Source: Octopus vulgaris (lineage: Eukaryota). From it: DNA of 64,000 bases. The position numbers and the translations under genes were made by a program. The stretch lies in the NCBI GenBank assembly GCA_951406725.2, contig OX597831.1:20584001-20648000 (forward strand). The letters run 5' to 3'. Within the stretch, counting starts at the first letter, position 1, and each line of letters begins with the position of its first letter. Below the pieces are notes generated by a model. The model saw only the letters and a program-made list of their open reading frames with translations. It made no database searches and had not been told where the DNA came from. Below are positions 41,602 to 42,199 of the stretch, piece by piece.

Positions 41602-42199
41602 GATGTATTGCAAACAACTTGCTTATAGAAGTGCTACCAATCAAAAGGTCCGCATACCGGAAGCCAGCAAGTGCATGAGGTCATCAGGAGAGAATGCGCG
41701 CCGTTTCGGGGCCTACCACTCGACGGCATCAATGCGCACCGGCCCCCCTCACTGATATGAGGTCCGGCTTCTTAGATCAACTGGTTATCAAAACTAGTTA
41801 TTAAAGCTCAATATTCTTCTAACCATCGCTCACCATCTCTTTTTAACCAAATCCAGTGACTAACCTTCTCCTCTGTAGTTTGGATATCGCTCATGGTGGT
41901 ATTGACTTCACAATGACTTAGGCCTAACGATAACAACATTCATCTCACACTGTGTCGTGTCCAACAAACCCTCTACATCCAACGTCGACTGGAAAATGCT
42001 CCGCTTTCCAGCCTGCGTCTTCACATTCCTCGAGGAGGTTTACATATAGACTTTATATGAGACGCCATCACCTCCTGGGGAACTCTTTGCTCTAGCTTTT
42101 CTTACGAAATCATTCACCTCTCTCTCCCTGATGTCCCCAATCTGGAATTCGATATCAGGTCCTGAGAGATGATTTAGCCCATGTAGAGGTGGAAGTGGC
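41602..42199 (-). mobile_element. Internally deleted HERO/NeSL-like non-LTR element (REL endonuclease type)
   Basis: EVNDFVRKARAKSSPGGDGVSYKVY (pre-RT) is joined directly to LLEECEDAGWKAEHFPVDVGCRGFVG (end of REL domain), followed by a GC-rich 3' UTR. Confidence 0.75.

Follow-up and report, generated by a model that had tools for sequence, protein, structure and literature searches.

The 3' UTR of a HERO-like retrotransposon family of Octopus vulgaris contains an RNA fold of the hammerhead type in which the CUGANGA core strand is split from stem II, an arrangement that we did not find described in the literature searched. Covariation of the fold in divergent relatives, a peak of genomic 5' ends on a single predicted bond and a terminal redundancy of the genomic copies lead us to a reading that we consider likely, in which this conserved fold cuts the element's RNA after a GUC triplet and the cut monomer circularises to become the main template, primed internally.

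A hammerhead-type fold with stem II detached from the core

The window, i.e. the whole stretch of 64,000 nucleotides that was analysed, carries the motif on its minus strand. An earlier note had reported the core letters there, within the 3' UTR of a HERO-like element, and both statements were borne out when the coordinates were re-derived from the sequence: GCCGU lies at 41727-41723, C17 at 41722, GAAA at 41707-41704 and CUGAUGA at 41687-41681. A pattern with a 5-bp stem III, UH, a 3-bp stem I, GAAA and CUGANGA in this order gave a single match in the window, compared with none in 200 composition-matched window shuffles. The whole motif is larger than first noted, extending on the minus strand from about 41775 to about 41664, and is made up of the following parts.

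41763..41775, minus strand: helix X 5' strand, damaged (CGGA, against GGGG in 42 of 54 family copies), assigned from covariation of X in relatives
41747..41762, minus strand: hairpin Y, between helix X and stem II with zero unpaired bases
41741..41746, minus strand: stem II 5' strand GGGGCC, beginning with G10.1 and detached from CUGAUGA
41735..41739, minus strand: 5' strand of P4, the helix that extends stem III past a bulge
41722..41727, minus strand: stem III 3' strand with U16.1 (41723) and C17 (41722), containing the GUC triplet
41721..41722, minus strand: predicted scissile bond, by analogy with the hammerhead; family peak of genomic 5' ends
41717..41721, minus strand: stem I 5' strand, with one mismatch in the window copy
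41708..41713, minus strand: stem II 3' strand GGCCCC, ending in C11.1
41695..41707, minus strand: GAAA core strand, stem III 5' strand and P4 3' strand
41688..41692, minus strand: stem I 3' strand
41681..41687, minus strand: CUGAUGA core strand (C3-A9)
41664..41680, minus strand: helix X 3' strand, directly after A9 (CCUC here, CCCC in 47 of 54 copies)

Distinct family copies keep the core, with CUGANGA in 51 of 54, GAAA in 49 and UH in 53. Stem III stands as the earlier note had drawn it. The pairing of GAG with CUC that had been proposed as stem I is real, but its length in the family is 5 bp rather than 3, GAGAG being present in 48 and CUCUC in 47 of the 54 distinct copies, and the window copy has a U-U mismatch in this stem. 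The window copy itself gave no full parse of the strand order described below; single-sequence folding of it did not recover the pseudoknotted fold, and its stability was no better than that of shuffles (z 0.71).

Conservation was assessed in 79 metagenome loci encoding proteins 31-55% identical to the query. When one family copy and the window were added, 54 of the 81 sequences contained the site, GAAA and CUGANGA in this order together with stems I and III, and a further parse of the full strand order, X5'-Y-II5'-P4-III3'-UH-I5'-II3'-GAAA-III5'-P4'-I3'-CUGANGA-X3', succeeded in 50 of these 54. A 44-element set was obtained by dropping five near-duplicates and one misparse. The parser behind this set demanded CUGANGA or UUGANGA, GAAA and UH, so that core invariance in it holds by construction, and the pairing counts of the parser are biased towards pairing; a MAFFT alignment and a covariance model served as two independent checks. 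Pairing within a sequence versus pairing across sequences in the 44 elements was 0.98/0.61 for stem II, 0.97/0.52 for stem I, 0.97/0.77 for stem III, 0.95/0.49 for helix X and 0.99/0.60 for hairpin Y. A gap-free X-Y-II junction with a stem II of at least 4 bp was present in 43 of 48 real sequences, compared with 40 of 960 upstream-shuffled ones.

Applied to the sequence-only MAFFT alignment of the 44 elements, RNAalifold predicted a single helix, which is the upstream stem II, with four of its five pairs changed on both sides. Across stems I, II, III and P4 in the same alignment, 92.7% of 711 cells were paired and 14 of 17 pairs had changed on both sides, whereas slid partners were paired in 28.0-48.5% and none of 500 shuffles reached the observed level of paired cells. 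The covariance model of stem III and P4 alone gave hits at E up to 1 in 69 of the 79 metagenome loci, all on the ORF strand, and no hit at this threshold in the other 10; in the window, it matched this site alone. Among 19 stretches outside the training set of the model, 13 show the full fold (9 of them gap-free, with some near-identical pairs included) and six gave no full parse. The first motif search reached 450 nt, and 'none' labels in our tree of relatives (built by a quick method on the C-terminal region, without outgroups from other clades) mostly reflect that limit or degenerate copies; the stem III and P4 model later found the motif in many loci first labelled in this way. The distance from the ORF end to the ribozyme fold is 58-213 nt in 43 parsed loci, and five loci with long 3' UTRs (L119, L120, L140, L144 and L178) have the fold about 360-1600 nt behind the ORF end.

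The expectation that stems I and III would be conserved with covariation, around a core order that is no circular permutation of the familiar one, is borne out in these 44 divergent elements. Some held-out loci deviate in the core letters: UUGACAA is found in three related loci (L132, L184 and L186), AAAA replaces GAAA in L150 and L162, and L164 has CUGAUGU. Core changes with all helices intact (UUGACAA in L132, L184 and L186; AAAA in L150 and L162; UUGAAGA in L114 and L120) could represent dead copies or tolerated variants. We regard it as nearly certain that the fold is real and conserved.

The assignment of stem II had to be revised. The earlier note had drawn a bulged stem II from AGG and CCU and had remarked on its lack of a G-C closing pair. 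In the 44 elements, this pairing is at chance (0.39 within versus 0.40 across sequences), as is that of the strand after CUGANGA with the strand before GAAA generally. In 47 of 54 family copies, CCCC comes directly after CUGAUGA, and AGG/CCU is thus not a feature of the family. CCCC cannot pair with the GGCCCC before GAAA, whereas the upstream GGGGCC can. The upstream GGGGCC/GGCCCC stem II has the canonical G10.1-C11.1 closure. On MAFFT columns, position 10.1-11.1 is G-C in 37, G-U in 5 and another combination in 2 of the 44 elements. In the 44 elements, G10.1 is constant although the other pairs of stem II vary, as the metal site of a hammerhead would require; N7 and H17 vary, which is hammerhead-like; U16.1-A15.1 is likewise fixed across the relatives. 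On the extension of stem III, 32 of the 44 elements have by sequence a kink-turn signature (a 3-nt bulge with tandem G-A/A-G), other bulges ranging from 0 to 9, whereas the O. vulgaris family has a plain bulge without this signature.

Comparison with described hammerheads places the finding more narrowly than had first been thought. The cyclic order of types I-III is CUGANGA, GAAA, site; here, it is site, GAAA, CUGANGA. The earlier note had taken this order to be undescribed, but it has been published as type SGC (HRIMA-1 and variants), alongside the non-circularly permuted types CSG and GCS, and type SGC has been shown to cleave (Eckert et al. 2023, PMC10085705, available in part). According to the same source, the block scheme behind this type allows six permutations and assumes that CUGANGA is contiguous with its neighbouring paired strands, and known hammerhead alignments have at most 1-2 nt between CUGANGA and the stems. 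Type SGC resembles the HERO-like fold in its order, its core letters and its mutually crossing stems, and also in the short linker that joins the stem I 5' strand to the stem II 3' strand (PMC10085705, same portion). However, it keeps block C intact, whereas in the HERO-like fold the 5' strand of stem II is found upstream of the site, and A9 is followed by helix X, which is connected to stem II through hairpin Y. A9 and position 10.1 are neither directly linked nor within 1-2 nt of each other in the HERO-like fold, which departs from the six published permutations on one tested feature, the intact block C. Whereas the fold described here belongs to an animal retrotransposon family, the type-SGC examples come from metatranscriptomes, genomes of known organisms contributing none except one bacterial GCS candidate, as far as the accessible text of that paper goes (PMC10085705).

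No precedent for activity with a junction between CUGANGA and a stem was found in the literature examined. The pistol-like hammerhead, in which a loop pseudoknot with a stem-loop takes the place of helix II, shows that the core tolerates other architectures of helix II (Zhan et al. 2024, PMC11300833, in the sections available); the terms 'permut' and 'four-way' are absent from that text. Among the Rfam matches listed for window positions 36000-52000 (150 of 195), there was no relevant family, and the Rfam hammerhead families gave no match at E up to 10 in two loci searched (L171 and L075). A tRNA match is present in the window at 51481-51553 on the minus strand (64.8 bits).

The host element and the copy in the window

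The motif stretch belongs to a dispersed repeat, whose 3' end it forms. A first look at the O. vulgaris genome gave 2421 candidates for this repeat, and a 19-mer inside the motif has 788 exact genome matches. The natural unit of the family, represented by locus L258, measures 3738 nt and has an open frame of 1175 residues with an N-terminal zinc-finger-like motif, a reverse transcriptase with FMDD, a downstream CCHC and a PD..E endonuclease motif. The frame of L258 is open from nt 17, and its first AUG is codon 61. Judged by these sequence motifs, the element has the layout of the HERO clade, i.e. a single ORF with reverse transcriptase, CCHC and a PD-(D/E)xK-type endonuclease; an RVT_1 fragment in a partial protein scores below the Pfam cut-off. 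The protein shares 38% identity over 971 residues with a Takifugu rubripes reverse transcriptase, BAC82598.1, which is probably HEROFr, and we term the element HERO-like. Its copies are dispersed with unrelated, often AT-rich flanks, that is, without a fixed target sequence.

The described members of the HERO clade (HEROFr, HEROTn and HERODr) share the single ORF, the reverse transcriptase, the CCHC, the PD-(D/E)xK-type endonuclease and the lack of a fixed target, and the portions of these descriptions at hand mention no ribozyme, terminal redundancy or circular template (PMC3636483, PMC2790886). The literature searched, outside of which lie subscription journals and Repbase reports, held no description of HERO with a hammerhead or of HERO with direct repeats or circular RNA; terminal repeats of HERO may be on record in those sources. 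A term search of the supplement of Eckert et al. did not return 'hero' in the part available (PMC10085705), and the word is likewise absent from the accessible part of a 2026 preprint on retrozymes (bioRxiv 10.64898/2026.07.22.740005).

The copy in the window is a remnant in which unit positions 1063-1215 are fused to 3311-3738, inside a 122-bp direct repeat, with the following features.

42047..42199, minus strand: internal ORF fragment (unit 1063-1215), joined directly to the 3' part, 95.4% identity
41602..42046, minus strand: 3' part of the HERO-like copy (end of the endonuclease region, 3' UTR, tail-less 3' end), by blastn against L258 unit 3311-3738, 85.8% identity
41808..41810, minus strand: stop codon of the element ORF
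41602..41663, minus strand: tail to the usual genomic 3' boundary, without poly(A); putative internal priming site
42197..42318: flanking direct repeat, copy 1, 89% identical to copy 2; possible long target-site duplication
41479..41601: flanking direct repeat, copy 2

With its truncation and its damaged stem I and helix X, this copy is likely weak or dead as a ribozyme. Its 122-bp flanking repeat resembles a very long target-site duplication. Such duplication was rejected as a general rule, an adjacent duplication being present in 8 of 80 copies and simple or AT-rich in 6 of these; among the 80 copies with both flanks, a non-simple adjacent duplication is present only in the window copy and in L030 (25 bp). 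Three loci on contig C29 (L031-L033) have element tails embedded in 278-bp tandem-repeat arrays and amplified along with them.

Genomic ends of the family and the predicted cut

The cut predicted after GUC at 41722 (41722|41721), the bond already named in the earlier note, coincides with a peak of genomic 5' ends. Truncated copies were sought with a pattern that disallows the consensus bases at -18 and -16; of the 48 copies returned, 29 have unrelated flanks and represent 5' truncations between -15 and +4. Fourteen of these 29 start at cut+1 (the script gave 15, from which L211 was removed by eye for its degenerate -8 start), two at -1 and none at +2 to +4, with no more than four at any position elsewhere. 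Against an expectation of 1/19, the 14 starts correspond to p 4.6e-11, under a null that is uniform over 19 positions and ignores structure-induced stops. Five of the 14 have flanks ending in TT and could be -2 starts with CpG decay; the unambiguous 9 of 29 give p 1.2e-5. In L196, a cut+1 start is joined to internal ORF sequence. A downstream control window was unusable, since the 14-base anchor chosen for it also occurs in the ORF of an unrelated repeat (1378 matches). This repeat makes up 14 of the 16 control loci fetched (L238-L251); its antisense strand shares the 14-mer with the motif, and it looks like the ORF of another LINE.

Nearly all copies read through the predicted cut site without added bases, 1-4 extra bases being present there in two copies only, compared with 788 exact downstream 19-mers. 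We consider RNA cleavage at the predicted bond very probable. In seven of nine cut-starting copies (L190-L198), the left flank ends in AT, suggesting a short target preference. Internal deletions of the region of the stem II 5' strand, from hairpin Y to stem III, recur in a number of independent copies (L210, L212, L217-L220, L222, L224, L226, L229 and L230) and are possibly structure-guided skips in reverse transcription.

That the cut defines the 3' end of the element, as the earlier note had supposed, is contradicted by the genomic copies: in each of 30 selected by the end of the ORF, about 120 nt follow the cut before a tail-less boundary is reached. Starting from the other end, 30 loci were picked by the element start, and 25 of them reach the first base of the unit. 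In each of these 25, the element's own tail stands directly upstream of that base, over 6 to more than 600 nt (24 as detected by BLAST, one by 6 nt), with a precise junction and a variable left edge. Of 20 longer loci, 12 comprise the tail together with a complete unit; the longest measures 1.53 units, and two units are found in none. At the other side, 4 of 62 right ends run 4-9 nt into head sequence, compared with 0.36 expected, which implies that the template continues beyond the priming site. Two tails within one insertion were compared, but an origin from the same or from another template could not be separated because subfamily copies are 98-100% alike. One contig in four presumed RNA contig sets spans the tail-head junction; the junction also occurs in DNA, and the contigs carry no end information.

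Among 52 parsed metagenome loci, 10 have head-type hairpins behind the tail, and by the model, the ribozyme lies near the contig start or upstream of the ORF in six loci (L117, L132, L141, L146, L149 and L179). The tail-head arrangement is therefore not peculiar to O. vulgaris, though assembled repeats can be chimeric. Hairpin-like repeats with GAAAGA-type loops occupy the first 190 nt of the L258 unit, with five in the family, and hairpins of the GAAAGA type occur 100-215 nt after the cut in L115, L124, L138, L143, L156, L167, L170, L171, L177 and L189. These head hairpins may serve in cap-independent translation or bind proteins. The possibility that the head contains a second ribozyme was dismissed, since it has no CUGANGA and gave no model hit.

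A proposed circular template and its alternatives

Based on these observations, we propose the following hypothetical multistep mechanism, in which (i) helices X, Y and II and the A9-G12/G8-A13 stack would meet as a four-way junction that would hold A9 against G10.1, replacing the usual backbone link; (ii) the transcript of a terminally redundant copy would contain two ribozymes and undergo two cuts; (iii) the ends of the resulting monomer would be joined to a circle, either by an RtcB-type ligase or by the ribozyme itself; (iv) the reverse transcriptase would prime at an internal point, about 120 nt beyond the cut, and go round the circle one to one-and-a-half times, thereby regenerating the redundancy; and (v) on unligated or re-cut templates the enzyme would run off at the cut, giving rise to the 120-nt copies. 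Hammerhead cleavage leaves a 2',3'-cyclic phosphate and a 5'-OH. Hammerhead-derived circles have been proposed for Penelope (PMC4209133), and ligation by RtcB has been shown for retrozymes (PMC7229834), as reported in the available portions of these two papers.

Penelope resembles the HERO-like element in that it is autonomous, has a hammerhead and partial tandem insertions, and has been proposed to reach cDNA longer than a unit by way of cutting, ligation and circles; its hammerheads, however, are of the minimal or canonical type I and lie in terminal repeats, and its endonuclease is GIY-YIG (Cervera and de la Peña 2014, PMC4209133, as far as available). The HERO-like element, by contrast, has a restriction-like endonuclease after the reverse transcriptase and a rewired ribozyme in its 3' UTR. 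The non-LTR retrozymes of animals are similar in that tandem copies are cut to monomers, which RtcB circularises in vitro, but they are short, non-coding and non-autonomous, have type I hammerheads and are linked to Penelope (PMC7229834; bioRxiv 10.64898/2026.07.22.740005; both available in part). The unit described here is coding and encodes a restriction-like endonuclease, and is thus neither an element of the GIY-YIG kind nor a short non-coding tandem unit with a type I hammerhead. R2 has a ribozyme of its own, of the HDV-like class. It lies at the 5' end of that element (PMC13580325, in the part at hand).

Several other explanations of the genomic ends have to be weighed against circularisation. 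The cut RNA might stay unligated, its ends kept together by the folded ribozyme, and the reverse transcriptase might pass from one end to the other by jumping over the nick, a course of events that we judge rather unlikely. It would account for the 14 copies that stop at cut+1 and for the jump from cut+1 into the ORF in L196, and end-to-end template jumping is a property of the R2 enzyme. Jumps of the R2 type, however, usually add untemplated bases, and extra bases at the site are found in two copies only, compared with 788. Cutting might also be rare, acting as a regulator or to provide a 5' end for translation, with most insertions arising from uncut tandem read-through transcripts. About 98% of copies pass the site (14 detected cut starts versus 788), tandem-derived arrays are present on contig C29, and type-SGC ribozymes are slow in vitro, at 0.007-0.13 per min in the available part of the study (PMC10085705). 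Linear templates, however, would lose the redundancy by 5' truncation in each generation, whereas all 25 full-length starts keep it; L258, which has 1.45 units and at its right end extends 6 nt into the head, requires two junctions in its template, whereas none of the 20 longer loci reaches two units. We regard predominant read-through as improbable.

A role in protein binding, with a structure that resembles or descends from a hammerhead without being catalytic and with the 5'-end peak as a structural stop of reverse transcription, appears very unlikely to us. The 3' UTR structures of R2-group elements are binding sites, the kink-turn signature found in 32 of the 44 elements is a usual protein-binding motif, and some loci carry core changes. 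Nevertheless, conservation follows the catalytic pattern, with N7 and H17 free and with G10.1 and U16.1-A15.1 fixed, across proteins 31-55% identical, and the peak falls on one predicted bond with no starts at +2 to +4. As for the version of the earlier note, which combined the bulged AGG/CCU stem II with a cut that forms the element's 3' end, three pairs can indeed be drawn in the window copy, but it is almost certainly wrong: its pairing is at chance in the 44 elements, with only 3 G-C at 10.1-11.1, CCCC comes after the core in 47 of 54 copies, and in 30 of 30 copies the cut lies about 120 nt short of the end.

On the preferred reading of a cut, circularised and internally primed template, the finding bears both on hammerheads and on retroelements. 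Dozens of covarying natural examples break the rule that CUGANGA and stem II stay together. The split core would explain why pattern searches and Rfam missed the fold, and it offers a natural insertion point in the catalytic core. In the current view of R2-group elements, priming takes place at the 3' end of a linear RNA. In the HERO-like element, priming appears to be internal and the ribozyme appears to set the RNA ends, and the circular-template model put forward for Penelope thereby becomes testable with a different endonuclease. This also raises the question of how an uncapped or circular RNA of 3.7 kb is translated. We lean towards the view that HERO-like LINEs across animals have an active hammerhead of a seventh topology, its core opened at A9/G10.1 and restored by a four-way junction, and that they use it to replicate by way of a circular coding RNA with internal priming. 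If this is true, a whole clade of 'linear' non-LTR retrotransposons would be rolling-circle retroelements.
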